Below are positions 15,403 to 41,685 of a stretch of DNA of 64,000 bases, in pieces. Each line of letters opens with the position of its first letter. Position 1 is the first letter of the stretch. The notes under the pieces were generated by a model. It was not told where the DNA came from. It did not search any database and saw only the letters and a list, made by a program, of their open reading frames with translations. The stretch is from an uncultured Gammaproteobacteria bacterium (GTDB lineage: Bacteria > Pseudomonadota > Gammaproteobacteria > UBA9214): the NCBI GenBank assembly GCA_963710815.1, contig CAVQCA010000157.1, positions 40,271-104,270 of the forward strand, written 5' to 3'. The position numbers and the translations under genes were made by a program.

Positions 15403-15570
15403 CTAGGAGCCTGTCGGACTTGGGTGATCGTAGCGAGCATGGTGGGAGAACGAGCACAGAGTTTCACGATATCGAGGCGCATAGTGGTTCTATGCAACGA
15501 AATATCGGGGGACTATGGGCCGTTCTCCCACCAGCGCAGTAGATCAATCCTAAGTCCGACAGGCTCCTAG
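15403..15570. mobile_element. MITE-like 168-bp element, copy 1 (about 28-bp imperfect terminal inverted repeats, CTAG at both ends)
   Basis: CTAGGAGCCTGTCGGACTTGGGTGATCG…CGATCAATCCTAAGTCCGACAGGCTCCTAG. The same element in reverse orientation lies at 30040-30207 and a diverged copy at 41526-41685. Confidence 0.8.
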
Positions 15571-15644
15571 ACTGACTCTTGGGATATTATTCTGCCAATA
15601 CCCGCGGTGACCGGGGAGGCAACGCGGCATTCAAGGAGTCGGTG

Positions 15645-16580
15645 ATGGCACTCTCATGGAAAGACAGCATCTATATGCAGCGCGAGCTGCTGGCTCAAAT
15701 CCTGCGTGAGCCGCTGGCACAGCTGGCGGAGAAATGTGCACCGGTCTGGGTGGATCTGGTAAAGCTGAATGCGGTTCTGATGGAAGGATTTCCCGATATC
15801 CCTCATTGCGCCATCCTCTATGCCCTCGGTACGGACGCGATACAGGTCAGCGACAACGTAGGCTCTTCCGGGCGGATCTCTGGACATTACGGACGCGACC
15901 GTTCCGAGCGCCCCTACATGAAAGAGGCAATTCCCCCCTGGGGCTACCTGCTCTCGGATGCCTACATCAGTCTGTCCAACCAGCGGCCTTCGCTCACCGC
16001 ACTGCAGATCGTGCATTCGAACACCGGAACACTGGGCTACCTCGGTGCGGATTTCGATCTGCGCAGCCTGCCAGTGACCTCGGAACTCTACGAGGAACCG
16101 GGTTACTGGCGGCAAGTGAAGGGGGATCCGGCCATCCGGGGCGGGCTGTTCCAGCAGACCCGGGTCGAAAGCCCGATGGATGGCAACATCGGGAATGCCC
16201 TGTCCATCCTGGAGGAACTGCTGACGCAACGCGGCATCTTCCAGTGCCAGATCCACTTCTCCAGCAGCCAGGCAACGATCTGGGTGGTGGACGATCCGTT
16301 TCGCTACCGCATCCTCGATCACGAGGCATTGACGGACCCGGATATCTGCCTGGTCTACCCCTTGCAGCCCTACCCGGAAAAAGCGCTGATTCCGCAGGAA
16401 GACATCGGCCTTATCCTGGACACCATGCGCGCGCTGCGCCTGACCGACAAGACCATCTATCTGCGCATGGCCTCGATCAATCTCTTCAATGGCATGGTCA
16501 GTCTGACCTTCTCATGCGATGGTTCACACTACATGCCTTACATGGAATTTCTGCTGAAAGACACGACTTTCTGGTTCTGA
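15645..16580 (+). CDS. hypothetical cytoplasmic protein, possibly with a PAS/Cache-like sensory fold
   Basis: 311-aa ORF with good coding character and an AAGGAG RBS 6 nt upstream of ATG 15645. I recognise no confident family. Confidence 0.5.
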   Translation: MALSWKDSIYMQRELLAQILREPLAQLAEKCAPVWVDLVKLNAVLMEGFPDIPHCAILYALGTDAIQVSDNVGSSGRISGHYGRDRSERPYMKEAIPPWGYLLSDAYISLSNQRPSLTALQIVHSNTGTLGYLGADFDLRSLPVTSELYEEPGYWRQVKGDPAIRGGLFQQTRVESPMDGNIGNALSILEELLTQRGIFQCQIHFSSSQATIWVVDDPFRYRILDHEALTDPDICLVYPLQPYPEKALIPQEDIGLILDTMRALRLTDKTIYLRMASINLFNGMVSLTFSCDGSHYMPYMEFLLKDTTFWF

Positions 16581-16608
16581 ACGGCACCCTGGTACGATTC
16601 GCGCAGGC

Positions 16609-18606
16609 TCACTTCCAGTCGCCGCGCAGCGCGGCCACGCGTTCCTGCAGACCGGCGGCGCTGACCGCGGCGGGCGGCACCGGCGTGCCAAGCGCCAGGG
16701 CGATTTTGTAAAACAGCGGTCGTGGCAGCTTGCCCTTCATCGCCGCCCCGCCCTTGCGGCTGAAGAAGCTCCCCCACAGTCCGCGCAGCGCCATGGGGAT
16801 AACGGGAACGGGATTGCGCCGGATGATCTTCACGATGCCCGGGCGAAAGGTTCTCAGTTCACCGTCGGTGGTGAGCCCGCCTTCCGGGAAGATGCAAACC
16901 ACCTCGCCCTCGTCGAGATAGCGCGAGATACGTTCATAGGCGCGAGCCAGCAGCTCCGGATCTTCCCTGGCCGGGGCAATAGGAATGGCCCCGGCGGTAC
17001 GGAAGACAAAGTTCAGCACCGGCACCTTGTAAATCCGGTGATCGATCACGAAACGCACCGGCCGCCGGATGCAGCCGGCAATCACCAGCGCGTCGACAAA
17101 GCTCACATGATTGCAGGCCAGCACCACGGGGCCCGTCTCCGGAATGTGCCCGAGCCCTTCCTTGCGGATGCGGTAGATGGTGTGGATCAGCAACCAGACG
17201 ATGAACCGCATCAGGAATTCCGGGACCAGCCAGAAGATATACAGGGCGACCACGGCGTTCATCAGCGCGATCACCAGGAACAGTTGCGGGATGCTGAGGC
17301 CCGCATTCAGGAGAAGGATGGCCATGACCGCGGAGACCACCATGAACAGGGCATTGAGGATGTTGTTGGCAGCGATGACGCGCGAGCGGTGGCTGGGTTC
17401 GCTGCGCTGCTGTACCAGTGCATACAGGGGCACAATATAGAAACCGCCGAACAGGCCCAGCAGGAGAATATCGAACAGCACGCGCCCGTGGCCCGATGAC
17501 CGCAGAAAGCCGGCGGCATCCAGCGCGACACCGGCCGCAGGGCCGCCCGGGATAGCCAGGAACAGATCGAGGCCGAAAACGGTGAGACCGATCGAGCCGA
17601 AGGGGACGAGTCCCAGTTCCACCTGGCGACCCGACAGGCGCTCGCACAGCAGCGACCCGGTGCCGATGCCCAGGGAGAAGAGCGTCAACAGCAGCGTCAC
17701 GACCTGTTCATTGCCTCCCAGGGTCACTCTGGTGAAGTTCGGCAACTGGGCGAGGTAGGTCGCCCCAAGCATCCAGAACCAGGAGATACCGAGGATGGAC
17801 AGGAACACGGTGCGGTGACTGCGGGCGAAGTTGATGTTGCGCCAGGTTTCCGTGAACGGGTTCCAGTTGATTCGCAGATCGGGCGCCAGCGCGGCCGCGG
17901 TCGGGATGCCCAGGCTACTGAGCCAGCCCAGGCAGGCAAGCGTGATGATCGTGACGGACACCAGGCTGGTGCCATTGACGGGTATGCCGATCAGCACGCC
18001 GCCGGTGAGGGTGCCCAGCAGGATCGCCAGGAAGGTCCCCATCTCCACCAGACCGTTGCCGCCGACCAGTTCCTCTTCCCTGAGATGCTGCGGCAGGATG
18101 CCGTACTTCACCGGCCCGAACAGCGACGACTGCGTGCCCATCAGGAACAGCAACCCGATCAGCACCGGGATGCAGCCGAAATGGAAAGCCACCACGGCAC
18201 CGCTCATAATGGCGATCTCCAGCACTTTCACCCAGCGGATGAACCGGGATTTCTCATACTTGTCCGCCAGCTGTCCGGCCGTGGCGGAAAACAGGAAAAA
18301 CGGCAGAATGAACAGGCCGGCGCTCAGGTTGATGAGCGTATTGGATTCCCCCATACCCTGGCCCGCGGCCTGAAAGGCGATGAGGATGATCAGTGCGTTC
18401 TTGTAGACGTTATCGTTGAATGCGCCGAAGAACTGGGTCAGAAAGAACGGAGCAAAACGCCGCTGCTTCAGCAGCGAGAACTGGCTGCCTGTCGCGATCG
18501 CCGGGCGTTCCGATGCCGGCGCGGTCGGGCTTGTCCCCTCGCCAGGCTGCTGAACGCTGGCCATCCTGGCGTCCGGGTATGTCGCATTGCCGTCCGTTTC
18601 ACTCAC
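16609..18606 (-). CDS. fused MFS transporter / 1-acyl-sn-glycerol-3-phosphate acyltransferase-like protein (LplT-Aas-type lysophospholipid transporter-acyltransferase fusion)
   Basis: N-terminal roughly 12-TM MFS domain followed by a PlsC-type acyltransferase domain (…ACNHVSFVDALV…, …FPEGG…). Confidence 0.75.
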   Translation of the reverse strand: MSETDGNATYPDARMASVQQPGEGTSPTAPASERPAIATGSQFSLLKQRRFAPFFLTQFFGAFNDNVYKNALIILIAFQAAGQGMGESNTLINLSAGLFILPFFLFSATAGQLADKYEKSRFIRWVKVLEIAIMSGAVVAFHFGCIPVLIGLLFLMGTQSSLFGPVKYGILPQHLREEELVGGNGLVEMGTFLAILLGTLTGGVLIGIPVNGTSLVSVTIITLACLGWLSSLGIPTAAALAPDLRINWNPFTETWRNINFARSHRTVFLSILGISWFWMLGATYLAQLPNFTRVTLGGNEQVVTLLLTLFSLGIGTGSLLCERLSGRQVELGLVPFGSIGLTVFGLDLFLAIPGGPAAGVALDAAGFLRSSGHGRVLFDILLLGLFGGFYIVPLYALVQQRSEPSHRSRVIAANNILNALFMVVSAVMAILLLNAGLSIPQLFLVIALMNAVVALYIFWLVPEFLMRFIVWLLIHTIYRIRKEGLGHIPETGPVVLACNHVSFVDALVIAGCIRRPVRFVIDHRIYKVPVLNFVFRTAGAIPIAPAREDPELLARAYERISRYLDEGEVVCIFPEGGLTTDGELRTFRPGIVKIIRRNPVPVIPMALRGLWGSFFSRKGGAAMKGKLPRPLFYKIALALGTPVPPAAVSAAGLQERVAALRGDWK

Positions 18607-18613
18607 GCGGCGC

Positions 18614-18796
18614 TCATTTGCCGCGCTTGTCCGGCACCCGTGGGCGCGTGGTCCCGGCGGGACGGTTCTTCGCGGGATCGCTGAAGGTAAAGCGGCCGAA
18701 CAGCACGCAGCCCTTCATCCCGGGATCACAGGGGCGATCGAGCACGCGCTGGCAGCGGCCGTTAACCTCGTGTGGACAACCCCAGCCACCGCTCAT
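18614..18796 (-). CDS. small Cys-rich hypothetical protein, co-oriented 8 nt upstream of the MFS-acyltransferase gene
   Basis: 60-aa ORF (…WGCPHEVNGRCQRVLDRPCDPGMKGCVLFG…) with four or more Cys, a possible metal-binding ribbon. Existence is uncertain. Confidence 0.3.
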   Translation of the reverse strand: MSGGWGCPHEVNGRCQRVLDRPCDPGMKGCVLFGRFTFSDPAKNRPAGTTRPRVPDKRGK

Positions 18797-18844
18797 TGCC
18801 TGTACCTCCGTCAGTCCTCGATGAAGTAGCTATTGTTGTGTTGA

Positions 18845-19083
18845 TCCATAAACACCGTTTTCACCGCAAAGACGCAAAGGACGCAGAGAAATTCTTTAAT
18901 GAAAACAAATCAAGGAAGCTCTGATGTGTCGTCATACAGGACGCGTGTTCCATCATCCAGATGCATGATTTTCTGGATTCCGGCATTCGCCGGAATGACA
19001 GTAAAATAGAAGTTAATCAGAGGTTACTTAAACTCTGCGTTCTTTGCGTCTCTGCGGTGATTAATTTCCTTATGGATGGACGC
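18845..19083. repeat. CGCAAAG-octad palindromic repeat, copy A, with a roughly 115-bp insert in the loop
   Basis: Left arm TCACCGCAAAGACGCAAAGGACGCAGAGAAA (18862-) and right arm CTCTGCGTTCTTTGCGTCTCTGCGGTGA (19034-19060). Outer ends CCATAAACACC / CCTTATGGATGGACGC match copies C and E. Confidence 0.75.
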
Positions 19084-19204
19084 TGCTATTGTAGGTGCGG
19101 GATCGTCTACAGGGAAGCAGGGAGCCCGCAGCTGCATTCAGATGCAGGGGATGGCTGCGCACCCAGCGGCATCGTCCGCCGTAGAGGCAACGGCATCCGC
19201 CCGA

Positions 19205-21124
19205 TCAGCGGGGTTCGACATCCCCCTGCCGCGCCTCCAGCTGCTCGCAGGCCACAAGCCACTCCCCCTCCAGGACTGCGCTCCGACGGTTCAGCTCCGC
19301 CTTCTCCCGCAGCAGGTCGTTCAGTTCGGCCTTGTTCACCGGAAGGTAGATCTCGGGCTCGGCGAGGCGCTGCTCGAGTTCGTGCTGGCGGGCGTGCACC
19401 CCGGCAAGCGCGGCTTCCGCCTTCGAGATTTTCTCGTGCAGCGGTTGCAATTGCCGGCGCTGATCGGCCTCCTGACGCTTTTTCTCCTTGCGCTGGGCTG
19501 CGCCGCCCGGGCCTTCGGCGTTCCCGGACGCATACCGGCTCTGCCGGTTCCGCGCGGTCAGCCACTGCGGGTAAACATCCAGATCGTCGGGGAATTCCTC
19601 CACCCGCCCGGCGTGCACCAGCACCAGCCGGTCACTGGTGACACGCAGCAGATGTCGGTCATGCGAGACCAGCACCATGGCGCCGGCGAAATCCTGCAGG
19701 GCCGTGGCCAGCGCCTGACGCATTTCCAGGTCCAGGTGGTTGGTGGGCTCATCGAGCAGTAGCAGGTTGGGCCGCTGATAGACCAGCAGCGCCAGCACCA
19801 GGCGTGATTTCTCCCCACCGGAAAACGGGCCGGTCGGCGCCAGCGCCTGGTCGGCGGGAAAGCCGAAGCCGCCGAGATAATCGCGTAGTTCCTGCTCGCG
19901 CGCCTTCGGGTCGAGCCGCAGCAGGTGCTGCAGTGGAGAGGCCTGCGCATCAAGCTGCTCGATCTGGTGCTGGGCGAAATAACCGACCCGCAGGTCCTGC
20001 GCCGGCTCGCGTCGGCCCTGCCGTGGAGCGAGTTCACCGGCCAGCAGCTTGATCAGCGTGGATTTGCCGGCGCCGTTGGGACCGAGCAGGCCGATGCGCT
20101 CGCCCGGCGAGAGGCTGAGTTCGACTCCACCGATGACCGTCGCCTCACCGTAGCCTGCAGCCACCGCGCGCAGACGCAGCAGCGGATCCGGCAGCTTTTC
20201 CGGCGCTCGCAGGCTGAACTGGAACGGCGAGTCCACATGCGCCGGGGCGATCAGTTCCATGCGCTGCAGGGCCTTCAGACGGCTCTGGGCCTGACGCGCC
20301 TTGGTGGCCTTGGCGCGGAAGCGTTCGACGAAGGAATGCATGTGCGCGATCTCGCGCTGCTGCTTCTCGAATTGCGCCTGCTGGCCGGCCAGGTATGCCG
20401 CGCGTCGGCGTTCGAACGCCGAATAATTGCCATTGTAGAGTGTAAGCCGCTGGCGTTCGATGTGGGCGATATGACTGGCCACACTGTCGAGAAAATCCCG
20501 GTCGTGCGAGATCAGCAGCAGCGTGCCAGCATAGGCGCGCAGCCAGTTTTCCAGCCAGATCACCGCATCCAGATCCAGGTGGTTGGTGGGTTCGTCGAGC
20601 AGCAGCAGGTCCGAACGGCACATGAGAGCCCGCGCCAGGTTCAGCCGCATGCGCCAGCCGCCCGAGTAATCGCCCACCGGCCGGTCTTCATCGATAGAGC
20701 TGAATCCCAGACCGTGCAGCAGCTGCGCGGCGCGGCTGCGGGCCGTGTAGCCGCCGATCACCTCGTAGTGCGCGTGCAGCGTGCCGATCTGTTCGCCATC
20801 GTGCCGGGCTTCCGCTTCGGCGAGCGAGGCCTCGACCGCGCGCAACCCTTCGTCCCCGTCGAGCACGTACTCGATGGCCGCGCGCGGCTCGGCCGGCGTT
20901 TCCTGCGCCACATGGGCGATCACCCAGTCGGCCGGATGCCGGCACGCGCCGCCATCGGCATGCAGTTCATCGCGGATCAGGGCAAACAGGCTCGACTTGC
21001 CGGTGCCGTTTGCTCCAGTCACGCCGACCTTCCAGCCGGGGTGGATCTGCAGGGTGGCGTTCTCAATAAGCAGACGCGTCCCGCGCCTCAGGGTGAGATT
21101 ATCGAATTGCAGCATGGGCACCAT
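19205..21124 (-). CDS. yheS: ABC-F family ATPase YheS
   Basis: Collinear with E. coli YheS along its whole length (two ABC domains, QLLHGLGFS, RFRAKATKARQAQSRLKALQRMELIAPAHVDSPFQF, C-terminal coiled coil). Start placed at MVPMLQFDNLTLRRG. Confidence 0.85.
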   Translation of the reverse strand: MVPMLQFDNLTLRRGTRLLIENATLQIHPGWKVGVTGANGTGKSSLFALIRDELHADGGACRHPADWVIAHVAQETPAEPRAAIEYVLDGDEGLRAVEASLAEAEARHDGEQIGTLHAHYEVIGGYTARSRAAQLLHGLGFSSIDEDRPVGDYSGGWRMRLNLARALMCRSDLLLLDEPTNHLDLDAVIWLENWLRAYAGTLLLISHDRDFLDSVASHIAHIERQRLTLYNGNYSAFERRRAAYLAGQQAQFEKQQREIAHMHSFVERFRAKATKARQAQSRLKALQRMELIAPAHVDSPFQFSLRAPEKLPDPLLRLRAVAAGYGEATVIGGVELSLSPGERIGLLGPNGAGKSTLIKLLAGELAPRQGRREPAQDLRVGYFAQHQIEQLDAQASPLQHLLRLDPKAREQELRDYLGGFGFPADQALAPTGPFSGGEKSRLVLALLVYQRPNLLLLDEPTNHLDLEMRQALATALQDFAGAMVLVSHDRHLLRVTSDRLVLVHAGRVEEFPDDLDVYPQWLTARNRQSRYASGNAEGPGGAAQRKEKKRQEADQRRQLQPLHEKISKAEAALAGVHARQHELEQRLAEPEIYLPVNKAELNDLLREKAELNRRSAVLEGEWLVACEQLEARQGDVEPR

Positions 21125-21337
21125 TGTAGCGTCCCGGACGACAAATGGCTGGCTGCATGGAATGCAGCCGGTCATAAACTCATGGCCGGCTAATATTTCA
21201 CTAACGTTCGATTTCTAGTATGGTACCCGCAACACTGGCAGCCTCACGGAGGATCGACCTATGCACGAATGACAGATAACGGCGACATAGTCTTCCTGTT
21301 AACGGATTCCCCACGAACCTGAACAGAGGTATGCCTA

Positions 21338-22141
21338 ATGTCGAAACAATCGCGTAGTAAATGCCGAACAGGCGCAACCAGGAAATCAGGCAGTCGAGCA
21401 GACCTGGAAATTCTCACCACCGATGGTGTCGTCATCGACATCAACACCTTCACTCTCCACCCCTCCCGCAACACCAGCCGCAACAGTCCCCGCCGCATCG
21501 AAGCCAGAAACCGGGCACAGGGGCAGTACATGGCGGCCATCACCGGCTACCCGCTAACGTTCGGTCTCGGCCCTGCCGGCACCGGCAAGACCTACTGTGC
21601 CACGGCCATGGCGGTGGAGGCCTTCGAGCGGCGCGAGGTCGAGCGCATTATCTTCACCCGCCCGGCCATCGAGTCCGGTGAAACCCTGGGCTTCCTGCCC
21701 GGCAAGGTCCAGGAAAAGATCGAGCCCTGGTTCGCCACCTTCCGCGGCTACCTCAACGATCTGCTCGGCAAGGGCGTGGTCGACTGTGCATTGAAGAACG
21801 AACGCATCATCTTCGAACCGCTCGCCTACATGCGCGGCAAGACCTTCGATGACGCCTTCGTGATCCTCGACGAGGCGCAGAACTGCACCCGCCTGCAGCT
21901 GAAGATGTTTCTTACCCGCATCGGCGAGCGCTCCCGGGTGGTGGTGAACGGCGACCTGAACCAGTCCGACATTGCGCGTGATTCAGGACTGCTCGATGCC
22001 GTCGCTCGACTGCGCGGTCTGCGTCACGTGCATATCCACGAATTCGGCTGTGGTGATATCGTGCGTAGCGACCTGGTGCGCGCCATCATCGAACGCTACG
22101 CGGACAATACACGCTCGGAGGGCAGCTACTTCTCGTATTAA
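21338..22141 (+). CDS. PhoH-like ATPase
   Basis: …YMAAITGYPLTFGLGPAGTGKTYCATAMAVEAFERREVERIIFTRPAIESGETLGFLPG…, a PhoH/YbeZ-type P-loop. The N-terminal 60 aa are low-complexity, so the start is uncertain. Confidence 0.75.
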   Translation: MSKQSRSKCRTGATRKSGSRADLEILTTDGVVIDINTFTLHPSRNTSRNSPRRIEARNRAQGQYMAAITGYPLTFGLGPAGTGKTYCATAMAVEAFERREVERIIFTRPAIESGETLGFLPGKVQEKIEPWFATFRGYLNDLLGKGVVDCALKNERIIFEPLAYMRGKTFDDAFVILDEAQNCTRLQLKMFLTRIGERSRVVVNGDLNQSDIARDSGLLDAVARLRGLRHVHIHEFGCGDIVRSDLVRAIIERYADNTRSEGSYFSY

Positions 22142-22164
22142 CGGAACGTTGGACCGTGAAGAAG

Positions 22165-22258
22165 TAATTTCACCGCAGAGACGCAAAGAGCGCAGAAAAA
22201 ACCTTTACTGACAACATATAACCGCTTTACACACTTCACGTCTCCGCGATGAAGATGG
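22165..22258. repeat. CGCAAAG-octad palindromic repeat, copy B (degenerate right arm)
   Basis: TTCACCGCAGAGACGCAAAGAGCGCAGAAAAAACC … CACGTCTCCGCGATGAAG, immediately after the phoH-like stop. Confidence 0.5.
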
Positions 22259-22494
22259 AGGATTTTGCACGGCAACAGCCAGTCGCGCAGCTGCGCACTG
22301 CAGCGTAACTACCAGCCGCAACTGTGGAAGATTGCGGGAAAAGTCATTCGTTGTCGCTATAATGCACCCCCAGAATCCATGCGGCGGTTACCATGACGCC
22401 ATGGGTACCTCGAATTATTCATTCACCTACTGTAGAGACGGGCTCTTGTGCCTGCTCCTACGAAAGGTATCTCCATTCTCGAGGGTGACCTCTA

Positions 22495-23319
22495 TTGAAC
22501 AAGCTTCACCCCCGGAACCTGGCCGCCGCGTTCGCGGCAATCGATGCCGAGGCGCGGGCCGAGCGGGCGAGGCAACCCGGCGCAGAGCGGCGCGCTGCAG
22601 TGGCGCTACTCACCGTGGCCGTCTGCCTGTTGATGATCCACTACCTGAAATTCGAGACCAGCTTCGAGGCATTCCTCGACTGGGTTGGCCAACAGACGGG
22701 AGATCCCGGTTTCACCCGCGTTTTACGGCATGGCCGCTGGTACGAACTCTACACCGAACTGTGGTGGGGCGCGGTGCATCTGCTGGGCTATGTCATACTG
22801 CCCTCGCTGGTGATCCGCTTCATCCTGCGCGAGCGGGTGCGCGACTTCGGTCTGCACTGGGGCGAGACCGTGCGCTATGCCGGCTGGTACCTGCTGCTGG
22901 CGACGCCGATTATCGGCTTCGCCTTCCTGGTGAGCCACCGTCAGGACTTCCTTGAACACTACCCGTTTTACCGACTGGCTTTCCGCAGCGGCTTCGACCT
23001 GCTCGCATGGGAGGTGATCTACCTTCTGCAATTCGCCTTCCTGGAATTTTTCTTCCGCGGATTTTTCCTGCACGCATGCAAACCGGCATTCGGCGCCAAC
23101 GCCATCTTCGTCATGGTGGTGCCCTACCTGATGATTCACTTTGCCAAGCCCTGGCTGGAGGCGAGCGGCGCCATCCTGTTCGGCCTGTTCCTGGGCGTGC
23201 TGGCGCTGCGCTCGCGCTCCATCTGGGGCGGCACGCTGGTGCACATGAGCGTCGCACTCAGCATGGATCTGCTGGCGTTGATGCAGACAGGTCATCTCCC
23301 GGGGCGCTGGTGGCCATGA
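22495..23319 (+). CDS. CPBP-family intramembrane metalloprotease (CAAX protease / Abi-like)
   Basis: Polytopic protein with the EExxxR motif (…LEFFFRGFF…) and downstream His motifs typical of the CPBP family. Confidence 0.7.
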   Translation: MNKLHPRNLAAAFAAIDAEARAERARQPGAERRAAVALLTVAVCLLMIHYLKFETSFEAFLDWVGQQTGDPGFTRVLRHGRWYELYTELWWGAVHLLGYVILPSLVIRFILRERVRDFGLHWGETVRYAGWYLLLATPIIGFAFLVSHRQDFLEHYPFYRLAFRSGFDLLAWEVIYLLQFAFLEFFFRGFFLHACKPAFGANAIFVMVVPYLMIHFAKPWLEASGAILFGLFLGVLALRSRSIWGGTLVHMSVALSMDLLALMQTGHLPGRWWP

Positions 23320-23461
23320 CGATGCCCGGGACCATCCCGGTAGTGCATCACGCTTACCGTGGCAGGCTGCCGGCGTTGCCGCAAATCGGCGACCTCCCGG
23401 AGCGTGGCCTGTCATGAAATCAGCCGGAGCAAACTCCGAGGGACATCACCGTTACCGGAGC

Positions 23462-24166
23462 ATGCTCTGGGCAATTCTTTTGCTGGCCGCGTTGCCCGCC
23501 TCGCTGCTGGCCAGCTGGCAATTGCTCACAAGCGCCGACTTTCTCTACCCGTTGTGGTACGACGTGATCGGCATCGACCGCACCATCGCGGAGTACGGAC
23601 CAAAGAACCGCTACAGGAAACACTTCGAACTCACTACGCGGGAGGAACGCAGCCGGCTGTTCGCCGCCATCGTCGCCGGGATCAATGACGGCGGACAGGG
23701 ACTGGAAACCCTTACCTACCACGACGCCCGGGGCCAGGCCGTCGCGCCGCTGCTGCGTTCCCCGGAGATCACTCACCTGCGTGACGTAGCGCGACTGGTC
23801 AATGGGCTTTACCGTCTCGGCCTGGGGGCCATTGTGGTATGGATTATCGTACTCGCCTGGCTATGGCGTATGCGCCTGCCGCCTCCCCCGCTCGGGCGCT
23901 ACTTCGCGGGCCTTGGTCTTCTCGCGGTCGTGTTGACCTTCGCCGTCATCGCTATCGGGGCGAAGAAGGTGTTCTATACCGCGCACACCCTGATCTTTCC
24001 GGCCGGTCACCAGTGGTTCTTCTATTATGAGGAGTCCCTGATGACCATGCTGATGAAGGCGCCTGACCTGTTCGCCGCCATCGCCGCGGAGTGGCTGCTG
24101 CTGACCGCCCTGTGCTACTGGCTGGGCATCCGCCTGTCACGCCGGATCGTCCGCCGCGTCACCTGA
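23462..24166 (+). CDS. DUF1461/TIGR01906-family integral membrane protein
   Basis: N-terminal TM, a large extracytoplasmic segment and C-terminal TM helices (…FYTAHTLIFPAGHQWFFYYEESLMTMLMKAPDLF…). Family assignment is from memory. Confidence 0.5.
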   Translation: MLWAILLLAALPASLLASWQLLTSADFLYPLWYDVIGIDRTIAEYGPKNRYRKHFELTTREERSRLFAAIVAGINDGGQGLETLTYHDARGQAVAPLLRSPEITHLRDVARLVNGLYRLGLGAIVVWIIVLAWLWRMRLPPPPLGRYFAGLGLLAVVLTFAVIAIGAKKVFYTAHTLIFPAGHQWFFYYEESLMTMLMKAPDLFAAIAAEWLLLTALCYWLGIRLSRRIVRRVT

Positions 24167-24270
24167 GCATCCTGCAGGAACGGCCCTTGCCGTGAAGGGT
24201 TTCCGGTCACGCCAGCCTCGTGCGCAGGTTGCCAGTTCCAGCAAGCTGATATATCTATAACCAGTGTTTA

Positions 24271-24393
24271 TCCATAAACACCATTCTCAACGCAAAGACG
24301 CAAAGTTCGCAAAGAAAACCAACTACAAAAACAATTAAAAGACTTTGCGTTCTTTGCGCCTTTGCGTTGAGCTTATTTCTTTATGGAGGACGC
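24271..24393. repeat. CGCAAAG-octad palindromic repeat, copy C (complete)
   Basis: TCCATAAACACCATTCTCAACGCAAAGACGCAAAGTTCGCAAAGAAAACC…(AT-rich loop)…GACTTTGCGTTCTTTGCGCCTTTGCGTTGAGCTTATTTCTTTATGGAGGACGC. Confidence 0.8.
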
Positions 24394-24409
24394 TAACGAC
24401 CCCCACGTT

Positions 24410-29608: not shown

Positions 29609-30039
29609 GGTCCCAGATGATCAATGAATTTCCACGTAAAAGCCAGAGTCGCAGAGGAATTTCTCATGGAAAACAATTACAACGTATGGCGTCTCTGCTT
29701 TGGAATGACAGGCTGACGAGAGGGGGCAGCAGGTTTCGGTCTGCCGACGCACCACGGCGCACGGGATCAACAGCGCGTATTATAACCATTTTCGAATCGC
29801 TATAATACTTCTGTCACGACCCGTAAGTCGCCAGATGGTAAATGATAACGGACATCACCGGGTATTGACCGCATCAGGTGTTAACAATCCCTTGTCAGAC
29901 GCCCGGGGGAGCGAACTACGGGATCACCCTGAGTATTGGACGGGTTCCCGAATTCACCTCACGGGATCCTCCGTCCATGGCTTCATGCGGTAGAGGACAG
30001 AATTGGCTATGATAAGGGCTTGTTCAAGCCATCGCGTTG

Positions 30040-30207
30040 CTAGGAACCTGTCGGACTTAGGCTTGATCTACTGCGCTGGCGGGAGAGCGGCCCATAGTTC
30101 CCCGATATTTCGTTGCATAGAACCACTATGCGCCTCGATATCGTGAACCTCTGTGCTCGCTCTCCCACCATGCTCGCTACGATCACCTAAGTCCGACAGG
30201 CTCCTAG
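30040..30207. mobile_element. MITE-like 168-bp element, copy 2 (reverse orientation relative to copy 1)
   Basis: CTAGGAACCTGTCGGACTTAGGCTTGATC…GATCACCTAAGTCCGACAGGCTCCTAG. Its core is the reverse complement of the copy-1 core. Confidence 0.8.
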
Positions 30208-31169: not shown

Positions 31170-31176
31170 ATCAGTG

Positions 31177-33323: not shown

Positions 33324-33406
33324 GGGAACCTCCATTCCGGGACAGGAAAACGAAATCCGGGATCATCCCGTATCCGTCGTGCGCATGGTGTCGCACCGCC
33401 CGTCGA

Positions 33407-33631
33407 TCATACCCGCTTGCGGGACAGTCCGGACAGCAGCTTGAGCGCCAGCAGCAGCAGCGGCGTGCCGTGCAGGAACAGGTCGAAGATGTCTATCGGT
33501 CTGACCAGTGTTCCCGAGGCGAGCATCTTCAGCTTCTCCCACAGGTGCGGTTCCGGAACAAACGGCGCCAGCGCCATCACGACAGCCAGCGGCAGCAGCA
33601 CGGAAAGCGGAATGCTATCAAGCCATTTCAT
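33407..33631 (-). CDS. small hypothetical membrane protein (74 aa, two predicted TM helices)
   Basis: Hydrophobic ORF MKWLDSIPLSVLLPLAVVMALAPFV…LLLLALKLLSG. Upstream ORF 33618..34031 may be its frameshifted 5' part. Confidence 0.35.
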   Translation of the reverse strand: MKWLDSIPLSVLLPLAVVMALAPFVPEPHLWEKLKMLASGTLVRPIDIFDLFLHGTPLLLLALKLLSGLSRKRV

Positions 33632-34110
33632 GGTTCGCGTCCGGATTCACTATGTATAAGGGTGTAATGCCCGGTACTGTTGGCTTCATTTCGTTCTGCT
33701 CATAGGCTTCTTTTATCACGATTCTTTTCACAGTACCCAGCACACCGGATGCAGTCAAATCAGCCAGACAGGGCTGGAGTAGACGGACAGGACCGTCGGC
33801 CGCAGGGAAGCGGCCGGCGAGCCTTCGGAGACGGATTAACGGCGAATCCCGCCCGTTCTCCGGTCCGTCGCACCGACAGGACAGGGCCGGGATGATCAGG
33901 CTGGCGAACACCAGGTAGACACCGACCAGCTGCACGGACGCCGTAACACCACGGCATGCAGGGTAAATAAACCAACAGGAGAAATTACGCGTGCAGTGGT
34001 GGAAGGGCGGAGATCTGGCAACCCGCCGCATTGGTATCCACCCGGCAGTCAGGCGAACAGGCTCTGGCGGGAGTTGAACCCGTCCGCATTTCCAGCGGCG
34101 CTGTTCCTGC

Positions 34111-34320
34111 TTACTCGCCTTCGATCATGCGGCAACGCCGGCGGTATTCCTCTTCCATTGCCGCCAGGTGCCCGAGCACATTCTCCAGCGTCTCCTGTTT
34201 TGATGCGTCCTGGGCTTCTTCCAGCCACTGCTCCATTTCCTCCCGCAACAACGTCAGTATGTTCAGCGCGCCGATGAGCTCGTGCAGTTCACCAGGTTTT
34301 TCCGATGTGTCGTCGGTCAT
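34111..34320 (-). CDS. small acidic hypothetical protein (69 aa) immediately downstream of the ArsB/NhaD permease gene
   Basis: ORF with a 10-nt gap to the upstream gene and a helical, acidic sequence. No family recognised. Confidence 0.3.
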   Translation of the reverse strand: MTDDTSEKPGELHELIGALNILTLLREEMEQWLEEAQDASKQETLENVLGHLAAMEEEYRRRCRMIEGE

Positions 34321-34330
34321 GCGGGAAACC

Positions 34331-35674
34331 TCATAGATAACGCAGGTAGACGTATATCATAGCAATGAAAATCGACAGCAGCATCAACGGGAAGGCCATC
34401 AACATGAAAGGCATGAAACGGATAGGGTGCCCGGTGCGCTCCGCGAAACTCGCAATGATGAGGTTCGAACTCGATCCCACGAGGCTGCCGCTGCCGCCGA
34501 GGCAGGCCCCCAGGGAAAGCGACCACCAGACGGGAAGCAGCGCATGAGACCCGCCCAGTGAGGGTGCCATATTCTTGATCAGGGGAATCATCGTCGCGAC
34601 GAAGGGGATGTTATCCACCAGCGCCGAGGCGACCGCCGAGACCCAAAGCACGGAAATGGATGTCACGGTGGTATTGCCGCCGGTCAGCTTGAGCAGCCCA
34701 TGGGCCACGTTTTCCATCAGCCCGGTCACACCTACGCCGTAGACAATGATAAACAGACCGATAAAAAAGAAGATGGTCTGCCACTCCACGTCGGCGAAGG
34801 TCTGTTCGACCACCCTGGACTGTTCACCGGGACTGCGGGGCAGATTGTCCAGCAACAGCAGCAGTGAAGCGCCGAACATAGCGACGGTGGCGACCTCCAC
34901 ATGAAGGACTTTCGCCAGTGCAAAACCGGCAATCACCAGGGCGAGCACGACCAGCGATTGCCACAGCAGACGCCTGTCGGTGATGGCATCGGCTTCGCGG
35001 TAATCGAGCACGCGCTGGCGTCGTTCGGGGCTCGCCTTCAGTCCTCCTCCCCAGATCAGGTAGATCGGCAGCAACGTGGCGATAAAGGCCACCAGCGCGA
35101 GCGGGCCAAGGTTCAGCAAAAAGTCATTGAAGCTCAGACCGGCGGCGGAACCGATCATGATGTTCGGGGGATCGCCGATCAGCGTGGCGGTGCCGCCGAT
35201 GTTGGCGGCGAACAGCTGGGCGAACAGGTACGGGTAGGGATTTACCTTCAGGGCGTCGGTGATCAGCAACGTGACCGGCGCGATCATCAGCACCGTCGTC
35301 ACGTTGGGCAGCAGTGCCGAGAGCACCGCCGTAACCAGCGCCAGCATCACCAGGATACCCACGGGCTCCGCCCTGACCTTTTTCGCCGACCAGATGGCAA
35401 GATACTGAAAAATACCGGATTTCTTGGTAATCGCGACGATGATCATCATGCCGGTCAGCAGGCCGATGGTGTTGAAATCGATACCGCGCAGGGCGGCTTC
35501 CTGGTTGAGCAGGCCCCCGGCGATCATCAGCCCGGCAGCCATCAGTGATACGACCGCCCGGTTGATGCGGTCCGTCATGATGACCACATAGGTCAGCACG
35601 AAGATGACACCCGCGAACCATACGGGATCCATGCCCAGCAGCAGCCGGGTGGCTTCTGTTCCTTCAGTTACCAA
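34331..35674 (-). CDS. ArsB/NhaD-superfamily anion permease (citrate/arsenite-transporter-like)
   Basis: 447-aa polytopic protein with the duplicated-hairpin architecture and conserved …GDPPNIMIG… / …GSSSNLIIA… segments of the ArsB/NhaD/CitMHS superfamily. Confidence 0.7.
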   Translation of the reverse strand: MVTEGTEATRLLLGMDPVWFAGVIFVLTYVVIMTDRINRAVVSLMAAGLMIAGGLLNQEAALRGIDFNTIGLLTGMMIIVAITKKSGIFQYLAIWSAKKVRAEPVGILVMLALVTAVLSALLPNVTTVLMIAPVTLLITDALKVNPYPYLFAQLFAANIGGTATLIGDPPNIMIGSAAGLSFNDFLLNLGPLALVAFIATLLPIYLIWGGGLKASPERRQRVLDYREADAITDRRLLWQSLVVLALVIAGFALAKVLHVEVATVAMFGASLLLLLDNLPRSPGEQSRVVEQTFADVEWQTIFFFIGLFIIVYGVGVTGLMENVAHGLLKLTGGNTTVTSISVLWVSAVASALVDNIPFVATMIPLIKNMAPSLGGSHALLPVWWSLSLGACLGGSGSLVGSSSNLIIASFAERTGHPIRFMPFMLMAFPLMLLSIFIAMIYVYLRYL

Positions 35675-35675
35675 G

Positions 35676-36137
35676 TCAAACCTCGGCGGCGAGTATCTTT
35701 CTGGTTACATCCCAATAGGAGATCATGCCCACAAGCCGCCGTGTGGTCTTCTCGACCACCGGCACGCTGGTGCGGGTCTTGTAGAGAACGAGCAGTGTTT
35801 CCAGCAGGGGAGTATCGGGTTCCACCACGGTGACCTCTTCATTGATGCACAGGCTGATCGGATCGTCCTCTACCTCGATAAGCCGCCGGTGCAGGTCCGT
35901 TAGCGTCTCCCGGATGAAGGGAATCGTGGTCAGGCCCTCCTTCATAACGACCGCCTGTGGCAACATGAGACGCAGCAGACAGTGTACCCCGAAGACGCCC
36001 AGATAGCGGTCATTCTCATCTACAACCGGCAGATTGCGGTAGCGGTGATGCATGATGTACTGCGTGGCGGTGCGGACGGTATCGGTGGAACGCAGCACCG
36101 TCGGCTTTGGATCCATGATGGTATTGGCGGTCATGGG
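35676..36137 (-). CDS. CBS domain-pair protein
   Basis: Two CBS motifs (…YRNLPVVDENDRYLGVFG…, …TSVPVVEKTTRRLVGMISYWDV…). Start placed at MTANTIMDPK; the listed ORF is 5'-extended. Confidence 0.65.
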   Translation of the reverse strand, partial: PMTANTIMDPKPTVLRSTDTVRTATQYIMHHRYRNLPVVDENDRYLGVFGVHCLLRLMLPQAVVMKEGLTTIPFIRETLTDLHRRLIEVEDDPISLCINEEVTVVEPDTPLLETLLVLYKTRTSVPVVEKTTRRLVGMISYWDVTRKILAAEV

Positions 36138-36270
36138 CGATGAGTCATTGTCATGGAGAATGTGATTCCCACCTGCCCTCGCGTGGTCGCTGCATTCCGG
36201 TGTCCCACCAGGGGAAGACGGCCAATTCCCCGCGGTCACGATAGCATGCGCCAGCGGAGAGAGAAAGCAC

Positions 36271-37278
36271 TCAGAACTCCCGCAGATTCGCCTCGACCAG
36301 CCGGACATCCAGCTCGCCGATCCCGGCCCTCTCCCCCGAGATCAGCACCGGCAGACCGTTGCCGGCATCAAGGTAGATCGCGATAGCGCCGCGCAGCTCC
36401 AGCAGTTCGAAAACCGCCGGGTCTGCCCCCGGGCTGATCGGTTCGACCCGAAGCGACAGTTTCAGCACCCTCCGGGAACCGCTAACCCTATGCACGGCAC
36501 CACCGGCGTTCACGGTATAGTCGAGGTGACGCTTGGCCTCCACACCTGGCACGAGCCATACCCGATAGAGCGCATCATCATTAAAGACGCACAGGGGTCT
36601 GCCGCCGTTGGATGGCTCCCGGGACGATGCGCGATCGAGCAGCAGCTCCGGACTGGTCACGAAGTCGCAGCCGGCAGTGGCCAGGTCATACGGATAAAAG
36701 CTCCGTTTGATCTTGGTCCAGTCGACGGGCGGCTGCCTCCCCTCCTCCCGGCTGTCCGGCTCCACCCTGATCCGTGTGGCGCCATCTCCGGCGTAGCGAT
36801 AAACCTTGCGGGCACCGCCCGGTCCGGGTTTCAGCCGGTCGCGCTGCAGGACGGCGAGGCTTCCGGCGGCAAACCAGACCCGCCCCTCCGTGCTGTAGCG
36901 CTCAAGCACCGACTCCGCCAGCGCATGAATATCGAGACGCATGACCTTGCCGGCGACCTGCTGGAATCCCTCGTTTCCGAGCGCGGCATAGGGGCGCGCC
37001 TGCATATCACTACGCGAGGATTCCCCGAGATCTAGCGTCGTCGTAAGGCTGATCCCGAAACGGCTTGCCTCGAAGCGAAGCATGGTCCAGTCCACGCCGG
37101 GAAGGCTGCTCTGCGTGACCGGCGGAGCCTCGCCTCCGGCGTGGCTATACAGCGACAGGGGCAGCAGAAAGGCGAGCAGTGCGGTGCGCAGCGTCCACTC
37201 CCGCGCAACCGGGCCGGCGGTGGCCGCGGCGACAGGCAGTACGACGAATTCCTTTAAACAGTTCATTTCCGATCCCAT
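36271..37278 (-). CDS. hypothetical exported protein
   Basis: 335-aa ORF with a signal-peptide-like N-terminus (MNCLKEFVVLPVAAATAG…LLAFLLPLSLYSHA) and good coding character. No family recognised. Confidence 0.5.
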   Translation of the reverse strand: MGSEMNCLKEFVVLPVAAATAGPVAREWTLRTALLAFLLPLSLYSHAGGEAPPVTQSSLPGVDWTMLRFEASRFGISLTTTLDLGESSRSDMQARPYAALGNEGFQQVAGKVMRLDIHALAESVLERYSTEGRVWFAAGSLAVLQRDRLKPGPGGARKVYRYAGDGATRIRVEPDSREEGRQPPVDWTKIKRSFYPYDLATAGCDFVTSPELLLDRASSREPSNGGRPLCVFNDDALYRVWLVPGVEAKRHLDYTVNAGGAVHRVSGSRRVLKLSLRVEPISPGADPAVFELLELRGAIAIYLDAGNGLPVLISGERAGIGELDVRLVEANLREF

Positions 37279-37596
37279 GTCCTTGAATGAAATGCCTGAT
37301 CTCACGCGGTAGTATAAGCCACCCGCCCGCGTTTCTCGCCTGGCTGGAACGGCGCTCGCACCTTCCGCCGGATACGGCACTTCAGTCTCTACTTGTTCTT
37401 GAATAAGTACCTGTACCTATACAGAAATGTGACGCAATGCCGTTATTGCCTGTGTCGTCCCGATGCCTTGTGAGACAGGGACATGCGACAACCAGACCCG
37501 GACAATTGTCGAATTGCGCCCTGATAAACGGTCTGACACGGGCTCCTGCACAAGAGACGACGTTCGTTAACCAGTACACGGAAGAGGGACCTTGCA

Positions 37597-38805
37597 ATGC
37601 CGGTAAAAAAAATCCGTACCGAGGACGTCGAAGTTGGCATGTTCGTCTCCAGCCTCGACCGCCCCTGGAGCGAAACTCCGTTCCTGTTTCAGGGTTTTCC
37701 GGTCCGGGAAAAGACCGAAATCGATGAGCTGGAAAAGCTCTGCCGCCATGTCTACATCATGGTGCCTGACGAGGAGATCGAGCTCAGCGACGTTACCCCT
37801 AACAAATCCGGGGAGGTTTATCGCGACATCGTCGGACACAAACACTACCAGATCACCAAATCGGCCCAGGAGGAAGTACATGCGGTGCACCGCTCCCACG
37901 AGGAAATCTCCATTCTGGTTCGGGAGATCGAGGCCGCGCTGAACGATGACAAGGAGATCGATCTGCCGGCGATCACGAAATCCATCGAGTTCATGGTCGA
38001 CAGTATCGAGCGCAACCCGGACGCCTACATCTGGCTCACAAGGATCAAGAAATTCGACTCGACGATCTACAAGGATGCACTCAGCGCCTCGGTGTGGGCA
38101 ACGACTCTGGGACGGGAACTCGGGCTGGCGCGGGACAAGCTCAATGCCCTGTGCATGGGGACACTGTTCATGGACATCGGCAAGACGGCCCTGCCAAGCA
38201 AGCTGCTGAACCAGGCAGGACGACTGTCGGACGATGAATGGGCGCTGATGAAAACCCACGTCGAGCAGGGTGTACGCATCCTTTCGGAAAAGGACGGCAT
38301 TCCGGATGACGTCCTCGACATCGTCCGCACGCATCATGAGCGGCTGGACGGCAGCGGTTACCCCGCGGCCCTCAGGGGCGATGGATTACCCCTCCTCGGG
38401 CAGATTGGCGGCATCGTCGATTTCTACGTATCTGTAACACTGCCGCGGCCCTACGCCAAGGCCGTTTCACCCTCCAATGCCATTTACATGCTGTATCAGC
38501 AGCAGGGGCGCCACTTCTCCGAGCTGCTCGTCAGGAACTTCATTCATGCCCTGAGCACCTACCCCACCGGCTCACTCGTAGAACTAAGCAGCGGCGAGGT
38601 CGGCATTGTGATATCCCAGAACCCCGGCCTGCGCCTGAAGCCCAACGTGGTCCTGATCCTCGATCCTGACAAGAAGCCCTACGGATCCTACCCGATCATC
38701 AATCTCGCCGATTACAGCCCCGGACACACCGGCAACCCGATCAATATCGTAAAGACCATGGTGGACGGTGATTACGACATACGAGTTGAGGAACTGGCAT
38801 TCTGA
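37597..38805 (+). CDS. HD-GYP domain phosphodiesterase with an N-terminal DUF3391-like domain (likely c-di-GMP turnover)
   Basis: N-terminus MPVKKIRTEDVEVGMFVSSLDRPW…, as in DUF3391 proteins. C-terminal HD domain with …MKTHVEQGVRIL… and the HHERLDGSGYP motif. Confidence 0.8.
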   Translation: MPVKKIRTEDVEVGMFVSSLDRPWSETPFLFQGFPVREKTEIDELEKLCRHVYIMVPDEEIELSDVTPNKSGEVYRDIVGHKHYQITKSAQEEVHAVHRSHEEISILVREIEAALNDDKEIDLPAITKSIEFMVDSIERNPDAYIWLTRIKKFDSTIYKDALSASVWATTLGRELGLARDKLNALCMGTLFMDIGKTALPSKLLNQAGRLSDDEWALMKTHVEQGVRILSEKDGIPDDVLDIVRTHHERLDGSGYPAALRGDGLPLLGQIGGIVDFYVSVTLPRPYAKAVSPSNAIYMLYQQQGRHFSELLVRNFIHALSTYPTGSLVELSSGEVGIVISQNPGLRLKPNVVLILDPDKKPYGSYPIINLADYSPGHTGNPINIVKTMVDGDYDIRVEELAF

Positions 38806-38970
38806 CCGTCGGCCTGACATGGTTCCGCCAGGTCATGGGCCTTTCCGGCTGTTTATCCGTTCATACGCCCGCCGTACGATGGCGGGAAATCATGAGGTCG
38901 TTGCCGCAGCGGCGGGATGCATCGAATTGCCTCCCGTATCGGTAAAAAGTGCCACACGCTATCTTTGGCC

Positions 38971-39177
38971 TCAGTTTCTCAGGAAGTACGGCAGCGCGAC
39001 CAGAAGCAGACCGGCAAGAACGAGGTAATAGACGTTCGATATAACATAGGGGACGACAAACAGGGCAATACCGGCCACCAGCGGAACAACCGCCTGTTGC
39101 TTGCGGCCATAAATAAAGAATCCGAGCCCAACAGACCCGAAGATCACGCCCCAGAGCAGCGTCGAGGTATCGCCCAT
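38971..39177 (-). CDS. small hypothetical membrane protein (68 aa, 2 TM)
   Basis: MGDTSTLLWGVIFGSVGLGFFIYGRKQQAVVPLVAGIALFVVPYVISNVYYLVLAGLLLVALPYFL is strongly hydrophobic and plausible, but the family is unknown. Confidence 0.4.
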   Translation of the reverse strand: MGDTSTLLWGVIFGSVGLGFFIYGRKQQAVVPLVAGIALFVVPYVISNVYYLVLAGLLLVALPYFLRN

Positions 39178-39422
39178 AAGGGATGCCTGCCTCCTGACCC
39201 GTTATCGAATTGACCGCCAAAGTTCACTGAACACGTTCACGCCGCGGCACAGACTACCATAGACAGCAAAATCCCGGGCGAGGCTGATGAGAGATGTTCA
39301 CTCCATACGGAATGAACACATCGACGTGCCGCACCGCCGCCCCGGAACATTGAAGCGCGCGGCGCGTGTCCCCGATCGAAAGCGGTCCCGGACAGACACC
39401 TTACTGCGCGGTCAGCGGACGA

Positions 39423-41285
<1,863 letters not shown>

Positions 41286-41385
41286 GGGGGGATTGTACGG
41301 CCCTGCGACGACCCGGTCAGCCGGAAAACCGGAAAGAGGATGTAATCCATGATACAGGGACTATTCGGGCACGTTTCGCGCTAGA

Positions 41386-41523
41386 GTAGGGTTCATCCAT
41401 ATAGAAACAAACTCACCGCAAAGGCGCAAAGAACGCAAAGTGTTTGATTTTTCTTATTAAAAAGAATTTCTCTGCGTCCTTTGCGTCTTTGCGGTGAAAG
41501 CGGTGTTATGGGGACCCAGGAGC
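41386..41523. repeat. CGCAAAG-octad palindromic repeat, copy F (complete), directly abutting MITE copy 3
   Basis: CTCACCGCAAAGGCGCAAAGAACGCAAAGTG…(AT-rich loop)…TTTCTCTGCGTCCTTTGCGTCTTTGCGGTGA, a near-perfect 28-bp inverted repeat. Confidence 0.8.
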
Positions 41524-41525
41524 CT

Positions 41526-41685
41526 GTCGGATTCAGGATTGATCTACTGCGCTGGCGGGTGAGCGGCCCATAGTTCCCCGATATCTCGTTGCATAGCACC
41601 ACTATGCGTCTCGATATCGTGAAACCTCTGTGCTTCGCTCTCCCACCATGCTCGCTACGATCACCTGAATCCGACAGGCTCCTGG
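41526..41685. mobile_element. MITE-like element, copy 3 (diverged; CCAGG/CCTGG termini)
   Basis: CCAGGAGCCTGTCGGATTCAGGATTGATC…GATCACCTGAATCCGACAGGCTCCTGG, with the same core as copy 2. Confidence 0.75.

Follow-up and report, generated by a model that had tools for sequence, protein, structure and literature searches.

Palindromic repeats in an uncultured gammaproteobacterium as probable miniature elements of the IS1182 family

The locus

The window considered here is the whole stretch of 64,000 nucleotides (nt) analysed from an uncultured gammaproteobacterium (contig CAVQCA010000157.1, positions 40,271 to 104,270), with a reported G+C content of 59%. Upstream of lpxL, between recQ and gdh, and ahead of a further open reading frame (ORF), it contains three copies of a repeat of about 168 bp, for which the original prediction, made from the sequence alone, proposed a MITE (miniature inverted-repeat transposable element). 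On the evidence given below, the three are very probably non-autonomous MITE copies with 22-bp terminal inverted repeats (TIRs) of the IS1182 insertion sequence (IS) family, ISAzo1-like group. The elements are oriented by asymmetric motifs of their hairpin, such that the 'A strand' is the better-folding strand. The features concerned are as follows.

15403..15570, + strand: MITE copy 1, 168 bp, with + as the A strand
15403-15424 and 15549-15570: TIRs of copy 1, with CTAG at 15403-15406 and 15567-15570
30012..30030, + strand: TIR-like stretch ATAAGGGCTTGTTCAAGCC next to copy 2, a possible relic of an older copy
30040..30207, - strand: MITE copy 2, 168 bp, with - as the A strand
30040-30061 and 30186-30207: TIRs of copy 2, with CTAG at 30040-30043 and 30204-30207
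41516..41685, - strand: MITE copy 3, 170 bp, with - as the A strand; TIR variant GGATTCAGG/CCTGAATCC, flanks CCAG...CTGG

The three repeats are genuine copies and not chance matches. Over 169 nt, copies 1 and 2 show 95% complementarity, and copy 3 is ~90% alike to the other two (range among the three, 89-95%), while a 19-nt TIR pattern occurs six times in the window against 0.16 expected and a 24-nt core three times against 0 expected. The similarity ends exactly at the CTAG boundaries, beyond which the flanks of the copies are unrelated, and the imperfect palindrome comprises the entire unit, not just its ends. With a profile made from 51 family members, no window copies beyond these three come up at E<=10, and the three are oriented at 133-158 bits against 32-46 bits on the opposite strand (copy 1: 157.6 bits on +, 45.6 on -). 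In these respects the original description of three copies in both orientations, bounded by inverted repeats and with CTAG ends in two of them, was accurate, CTAG being found on both sides of copies 1 and 2. Its left boundary for copy 3, 41526, was wrong: the copy begins at 41516, and 10 bp of the right terminal repeat had been cut off. At 168-170 bp the unit lies within the size usual for prokaryotic MITEs (<300 bp). It has no gene of its own: the ORFs that cross it, 15376..15570 and 41393..41752, are repeat-encoded artefacts, as had been supposed; both contain the peptide ISRRIVVLCNEISG because both read the same repeat, and the covariation in the unit has the pattern of a hairpin.

With respect to the neighbouring genes, assigned by Pfam, copy 2 lies 36 bp upstream of lpxL, as originally given, and copy 3 lies in the divergent recQ-gdh spacer. 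The distance of 37 bp put forward for copy 3 holds for a GTG start of gdh at 41722, which gives a 479-aa GDH, the length of the closest listed homologues; it does not hold for the ATG at 41746, which is 60 bp away and from which the window GDH has no exact protein match on record. In the same way, the '9 bp' between copy 1 and its downstream ORF is right for the mechanical TTG start at 15579 and wrong for the ATG at 15645, 74 bp away. Copy 1 is sense to this ORF; copy 2 is antisense to lpxL and copy 3 to gdh, and the A strand of copy 3 is sense to recQ.

Terminal repeats and the parent insertion sequence family

Full-length IS1182-family insertion sequences have ends that match the 22-bp termini of the MITE, CTAGGAGCCTGTCGGACTTAGG; the TIR common to both is CTAG(G/C)AG(C/T)CTGTCGGA(C/T)TT (17-20 of 20 nt). 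Besides ISAzo1, the members compared were those of P. aeruginosa pPAG5, a plasmid of Methylobacter sp. YRD-M1 and a Limisphaerales chromosome. The last of these (L041) is a 1.77-kb element at 598-2369 with its transposase at 751-2153; it ends in CTAGGAGCCTGTCGGATTTGGG, its left end is identical to the MITE TIR at 20/20 nt, and CTAG stands on both sides. The corresponding ends are CTAGGAGTCTGTCGGACTTAT in the Methylobacter plasmid, CTAGCAGCCTGTCGGACTT in pPAG5 and CTAGCAGCGTGTCGGACT in ISAzo1, and some MITE copies carry the GCAG variant of the TIR at both ends, as in the pPAG5/ISAzo1 type. MITE-like IS ends were also matched in L127, L126, L125 and L105/L034. Ten contigs of the metagenome-assembled genome (MAG) JBOIEG have at their ends the exact TIR of the MITE and, inward of it, another interior that codes for the C-terminus of a DDE transposase (...VEPVFGIIKAVMRFRQFLLRG..., Pfam PF13751/PF01609); JBOIEG contig L034 bears both a MITE and an IS end. 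A protein search with a 49-aa fragment of the transposase returned only truncated contig-end proteins, and two fragment matches inside long contigs are relic fragments. The full-length ISs were reached by tblastn of the transposase against plasmids, in which the best matches are annotated 'IS1182 family transposase' (74% identity). The search for a full-length IS sharing the TIRs, which had been suggested as a check, has in this way yielded a parent, in all likelihood the ISAzo1-like group of the IS1182 family.

Against the full ISs the MITE profile matches only the terminal ~23 nt, and for this reason the MITE interior is not a deletion derivative of any sampled IS; nor is the unit a part of a larger IS, an outcome that the original prediction had named as one that would count against it.

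A tblastn search of the window found no IS1182 transposase, none was found in 717 kb of metagenome contigs that carry the MITE, and blastn of the MITE unit against PLSDB plasmids gave no match. Inward of single TIRs in genome loci, 2.6 kb of sequence contains only host genes and no transposase, and these loci are therefore truncated copies or solo TIRs. The absence of a transposase from MITE-bearing contigs is weak evidence, because the IS breaks assemblies, and such breaks may partly account for its absence from the 717 kb.

Several contigs end ~10-125 nt inside an IS1182-family element with an exact MITE TIR; one is viral (L001, IMG/VR UViG_3300002449_000390, 1-117) and the others belong to JBOIEG (L018, L025, L039, L044, L049, L054, L072). 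Relics of IS1182-family transposases are present as ORFs of 66-72 aa in long contigs (L122 3974-4268; L123/L124 4001-4219), one of which retains a diverged right end, CCCAAATCCAACAGACTGCTAG. L123 and L124 lie in a dense graveyard of ISs, with IS110, IS66, IS256 and IS3 types.

Target site and mobility

The target is most clearly seen with the IS of pPAG5, whose filled site reads GGTAA-CTAG-(IS)-CTAG-GGTATGG. When the flanks are joined to a 400-bp query, 106 related plasmids match, 103 of them over at least 80% of the query. Each of the 12 plasmid matches listed is a single piece of 404 bp, i.e. 4 bp longer than the query, and the single junction that was read, in P. koreensis p1, is GGTAACTAGGGTATGG (GGTAA-CTAG-GGTATGG). 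From the filled and empty sites it follows that the IS inserts at CTAG and that CTAG is duplicated; a 4-bp duplication of CTAG and a 2-bp duplication of TA inside CTAG give the same result. The CTAG target, originally a guess, is thus substantiated by an IS1182-family element with nearly the same ends, which stands between two CTAGs where related plasmids have one. For the MITE itself, 42 of 60 metagenomic copies are flanked by CTA...TAG. In the tandem copies of L114 just AA stands between GGCTCC and GGAGCC, where a shared CTAG would give GGCTCC-TA-GGAGCC.

Orthologous empty sites exist for two of the window copies. Relatives with an 87% identical LpxL and the same neighbouring gene lack copy 2 at the site upstream of lpxL, which in L131/L132 reads CATCGTGTTG-CTAC-TGCGGCGG, with a single CTAC. 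In other words, the relatives have ...CATCGTGTTG-CTAC-TGCGGCGGATGA... where the window has ...CATCGCGTTG-CTAG-(MITE)-CTAG-TGCGGCGGATGA..., and a third relative, L130, is likewise empty. The recQ-gdh spacer lacks copy 3 in L255/L261 (94% GDH identity) and L257/L259 (90%), in all of which synteny is kept; the 94% relatives carry only the palindromic repeat that neighbours copy 3 and the 90% relatives carry neither. The spacer is too diverged in these relatives for the exact target of copy 3 to be read. One copy from another metagenome contig, L137, shares 98% identity with copy 2, the element alone being aligned. Mobility, as first proposed, is accordingly borne out by the empty sites, and synteny of the copies in all relatives, which would have spoken against it, does not hold for copies 2 and 3.

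A fourth relative, L129, has a MITE of its own ~30 bp upstream of the position of copy 2 (L129 9778-9960), such that MITEs have landed repeatedly in the spacer upstream of lpxL. The MITE of L129 starts exactly at the position of the TIR-like stretch listed above (GGCTATG followed by CTAGGAGCCTGTCGAG...), where L131 has ATAGGCGCCTGTTCGAGTC (about 5375-5395). From this coincidence of position, ATAAGGGCTTGTTCAAGCC and ATAGGCGCCTGTTCGAGTC may perhaps be what is left of an older, deleted MITE copy.

The flanks of copy 3, CCAG...CTGG, are read as decayed CTAG, since among the 60 metagenomic copies the flank most commonly deviates by a T>C change at its second position, which produces CCAGG. A compensatory pair of changes was dropped as an explanation of these flanks: the T>C change recurs alone in 15 single ends, because of which two independent hits at the ends of copy 3 are plausible. 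Flank decay is itself non-random; reading inward in loci L135-L254, position 2 has changed T>C 15 times and position 3 three times. The change at position 2 yields a Dcm-like CCWGG site, and its excess could reflect a mutation hotspot or be related to methylation.

At 17 flanks of the genome set, by heuristic ORF calls, the TAG of the adjoining CTAG is the exact end of an ORF (L006, L026, L036, L043, L051, L059, L063, L071, L076, L084, L086, L095, L104, L110, L111, L114, L120). By these calls the MITE often lies squarely on a stop codon and restores it. Since CTAG often coincides with TAG stop codons in these loci, the MITE lands beside gene ends and starts.

IS1182 transposases are DDE enzymes. 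In the mechanism proposed here, such a transposase, encoded elsewhere, would bind both ends of the MITE and move the 160-bp unit into a CTAG tetranucleotide, which would then stand on both sides; the MITE, in other words, is presumably mobilised in trans.

Distribution of the family

A genome scan with the TIR pattern, using one genome per species, gave at least 120 matches, and a metagenome scan with the 22-nt core of the window subfamily likewise gave at least 120, mostly in sediment samples. With the empty sites, this amounts to the many dispersed copies and the presence/absence polymorphism that are looked for in a MITE. The genome matches listed include gamma-, beta-, delta- and zeta-proteobacterial genomes, with cultured hosts such as Thioalkalivibrio denitrificans and Pseudomaricurvus alcaniphilus; one full element occurs in a MAG labelled Bacteroidetes, for which a binning error is possible. 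Some 50 loci have two inverted TIRs at an AGG-to-CCT spacing of 163-167 nt, or 167-171 bp with the CT...AG flanks. Over the four proteobacterial classes the length of the family is nearly constant, at 167-170 bp. Their interiors are strongly diverged (mean column identity 73%), yet align end to end with the same architecture, and the subfamilies track host class (types of Burkholderiales, Desulfuromonadales, zeta and gamma). In the 717 kb of metagenome contigs the element stands at 141 locations, of which 63 are full length, 39 of these being exactly 168 bp. Truncated and solo-TIR remnants are present at other loci.

The hairpin and its strand asymmetry

The interior of the element is a family-specific, imperfect hairpin of ~120 nt and fixed length, and the covariation within it shows that it is maintained by compensatory substitutions. 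Copy 2, folded as RNA, has a minimum free energy of -103.8 kcal/mol (z = -12.0). RNAalifold, applied to an alignment of 51 sequences, gives 59 pairs, 42 of which have compensatory double changes. In a 63-pair structure 93.8% of the cells are paired, against 78.2% in shuffles, and 43 of the 63 pairs have double-sided changes (460 cells), a value reached by 0/500 shuffles. When the partner is slid by 1-3 columns, pairing falls to 34-47%; relatedness is ignored by the shuffle controls but not by the slid ones. The hairpin has conserved, asymmetric bulges and internal loops, as in GTAGCGAG facing CGCAGTAG, and the 5' arm of the alignment has three CGAG motifs with an unpaired A or GA.

The two strands are not equivalent in this regard. 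The A strand is on average 13 kcal/mol more stable than its complement and of 55 elements 50 agree with this, three of the other five having no orienting motif; for copy 1 the RNA minimum free energies are -104.8 and -96.3 kcal/mol. The alifold energy of the A strand is -83 kcal/mol and that of the complement -35 kcal/mol, and DNA energy parameters give the same direction (-56.2 versus -48.0 kcal/mol). Among the consensus pairs of the A-strand structure, G·U exceeds A·C by 262:63, at 36 versus 6 positions, and several pairs toggle between GC, GU and AU with almost no A·C. In the union of structures predicted separately for both strands the ratio is 263:117, with 42 of 51 sequences leaning the same way. 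The G·U excess, together with the bias in stability, is read as selection on the single-stranded form of one strand, a reading in which shared ancestry among the copies is not fully controlled. Whether as a transcript or as single-stranded DNA, that form of the A strand has about an even chance of aiding the persistence or propagation of the family, which would be the reason for the hairpin.

Competing explanations

Several observations weigh against the picture of a trans-mobilised MITE whose hairpin is kept for its single-stranded form. In the 64-kb window, the part of the source genome that was covered, no cognate transposase was found. The divergence of ~5% between copies 1 and 2, and of ~10% for copy 3, is such that the window copies may be inactive. 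Covariation between the arms of a DNA palindrome could stem in part from intramolecular gene conversion. Furthermore, insert orientation with respect to flanking genes is only weakly biased (102 sense versus 76 antisense, by heuristic ORF calls), orientation with respect to local GC skew is 26:21 and not significant (p = 0.56), and no sigma-70-like promoter is present inside the copies. Neither an RNA role nor a replication-linked role of single-stranded DNA has independent support.

The hairpin invites the alternative of an element that is in the first place a mobile gene for a structured RNA, or an RNA module acting in cis, with the IS1182 ends only as its vehicle. This we regard as unlikely. 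The functional product would here be the A-strand transcript, which might, for example, be a determinant of stability or for RNase III, act as an attenuator or regulate the IS1182 transposase. The strand-specific covariation, with its GC/GU/AU intermediates at columns 33-149, 25-154 and 85-102, would be expected of an RNA, as would the conservation of length and bulge positions across classes; the 17 flanks on TAG stop codons fit with it, and in co-directional gene pairs the A strand is in mild sense excess (~26:14, by heuristic gene calls). Set against this, the orientation bias is not significant in either count, two of the three window copies are antisense to the nearest downstream gene, and no sigma-70-like promoter or U-tract terminator was found inside the three copies. 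Rfam, too, gives 0 matches at gathering score across the window and 0 even at E<=10 on copy 1, such that a known structural RNA gene, another outcome that the original prediction had set against itself, was not found. An RNA role would in any case be compatible with, not exclusive of, the MITE explanation. The same fold could instead be recognised as single-stranded DNA during transposition or replication, its bulges marking the active strand in the manner of attC or IS200/IS605. The asymmetry persists under DNA parameters, the three CGAG motifs with unpaired A or GA lie on one arm, and the terminal stem of the folded strand rebuilds the duplex IS end, all of which speak for it. Against it speaks that IS1182 transposases are of DDE type, for which no single-stranded DNA substrate is known, and that orientation is not significantly related to GC skew; an association with an HUH/Y1 transposase did not turn up, although no search was aimed at it. 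On balance this is improbable.

The two remaining explanations do without IS1182 mobilisation altogether. Repetitive extragenic palindromic (REP) or REPIN-type elements, spread by a RAYT (Y1) transposase, resemble the repeat in being palindromic, intergenic and multicopy, and gamma-type copies even have GTAG on both arms of the A strand; the GTAG is, however, not conserved in beta- and delta-type members. The length of 168 bp is far above that of a REP unit (20-40 nt), the termini are identical to IS1182-family TIRs, and a CTAG duplication and clean empty sites are present. Membership of the REP/REPIN-RAYT group, for which no RAYT gene search was made, is extremely improbable on these grounds. 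No more credible is that the copies are remnants of a larger IS or another gene, duplicated with their surroundings instead of transposed: truncated and solo-TIR remnants do exist elsewhere, but the exact CTAG boundaries with unrelated flanks, the interior unrelated to the ISs and the empty orthologous sites refute this reading. The identification as MITEs with IS1182-family ends is accordingly retained. A bolder extension of it, doubtful though conceivable, is that the family is an old, constrained mobile hairpin that has been riding IS1182 transposases across the Proteobacteria, with the strand-specific fold as its functional unit.

Neighbouring features

Copy 3 adjoins, as originally noted, a palindromic repeat, which proves to be a member of a second palindromic family with arms CACCGCARAGRCGCAAAG. 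This family is commoner in the window than the MITE (13 matches versus 0.25 expected) and occurs mostly as inverted pairs around an AT-rich centre:

18862-18879/19042-19059: second palindromic repeat
22171-22188: second palindromic repeat
24288-24305/24352-24369: second palindromic repeat
28362-28379/28627-28644: second palindromic repeat
31198-31215/31252-31269: second palindromic repeat
41414-41431/41479-41496: second palindromic repeat

In the recQ-gdh spacer it is present in the window and in L255/L261 and absent from L257/L259 (GCGCTAGAGTAA|CAGGCTCAGG), and it appears also to be mobile. Copy 1 has, 70 bp upstream of it at 15312-15330 (+), a terminator-like hairpin, ACTTGCGGAAACTGCGGGT followed by TTTCTTTATT. 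At 19725-19767 and 20568-20610 a 43-nt sequence is directly repeated (91% identity, spacing 843 bp), which could be an internal duplication inside a gene. Pure poly-A runs at 48400-48522, 49515-49639 and 49902-49935 (123, 125 and 34 nt), which came out of the repeat search as a 30-copy 'family', look like a masking or assembly/data artefact rather than biology.

Implications

As a kind of element the MITE is ordinary, and with its TIRs, its dispersal in both orientations, its CTAG target, its empty sites and its IS1182 parent, the original assignment stands. What has been added to it is the boundary of copy 3, the interior unrelated to the ISs and the strand-specific covarying hairpin across proteobacterial classes. 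A very abundant environmental repeat is now tied to a defined transposase family and a CTAG target. For annotation, the repeats and the ORFs 15376-15570 and 41393-41752 are to be labelled as MITE copies, not genes. For assembly, it is relevant that MITEs and their IS partner break short-read assemblies, many contigs stopping ~105-125 nt inside the IS.

The unusual and unexplained part is the hairpin, which has a fixed length across classes, is kept up by covariation and is biased to one strand. Should the strand-specific covariation reflect function, the family would be a tractable case for asking why MITEs retain long hairpins, as it offers hundreds of natural variants and cultured hosts (Geobacter sulfurreducens, T. 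denitrificans and P. alcaniphilus, among others). If the constrained hairpin is real, it might work as a mobile structured RNA with neighbouring transcripts or the transposase as its targets or, alternatively, serve as a folded single-stranded DNA substrate; in the latter case DDE IS1182 transposition would include a single-strand step that has gone unrecognised. One element of the family underlies a published G. sulfurreducens primer, omcE_fwd, which incidentally contains the TIR (PMC11077965).

Comparison with known systems

In the part of the literature covered, which excluded ISfinder, no description of this proteobacterial MITE family was found; all that came up was a table of ISMac2 MITEs and the Geobacter primer named above. 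Its closest known counterparts are the IS1182-family ISs themselves (ISAzo1 of Aromatoleum aromaticum EbN1 and those of pPAG5, Methylobacter and Limisphaerales), which are like the MITE in their TIR and in the CTAG on both sides. The MITE differs from them in having no transposase, in its size of 168 bp versus about 1.55-1.77 kb and in an interior without detectable similarity past the terminal ~23 nt. A parallel is provided by the MITEs of Methanosarcina acetivorans tied to ISMac2, an IS1182-family member, which are 160 and 169 bp long with inverted repeats of 25-26 bp, one of them having a 4-bp direct repeat (PMC3852290, Kamoun et al. 2013). Compared by description, not by sequence, these are likewise non-autonomous partners of an IS1182-family IS and of similar size; their host is an archaeon, and neither a conserved covarying interior nor a spread across classes is reported for them.

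Integron attC sites and the ends of IS200/IS605 elements are also imperfect palindromes that conserve structure, bulges and one strand, a likeness that is a functional analogy only. Unlike them, the MITE has no GTTRRRY core sites and no integron or HUH context, and its ends are those of a DDE-type IS. Membership of the attC sites was rejected in particular: in place of R''/R' core sites (RYYYAAC/GTTRRRY) the ends read CTAGGAGCC...GGCTCCTAG, and the flanking genes (lpxL, gdh, recQ) are housekeeping genes.

Finally, the classical bacterial MITEs that fold into long RNA hairpins are ERIC, Correia (NEMIS), RUP and Chunjie (PMC3184786, Delihas 2011). Like the family described here, they are intergenic palindromes of 100-235 bp with TIRs and very stable predicted RNA hairpins, which lie in both orientations near genes. 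Chunjie was considered as the same element and rejected, as it has 9-bp direct repeats (PMC3184786) and is A+T-rich. All four differ in TIRs and targets and are confined to a genus or family, whereas the MITE family of the window extends over several proteobacterial classes, with a fixed length and strand-biased covariation.

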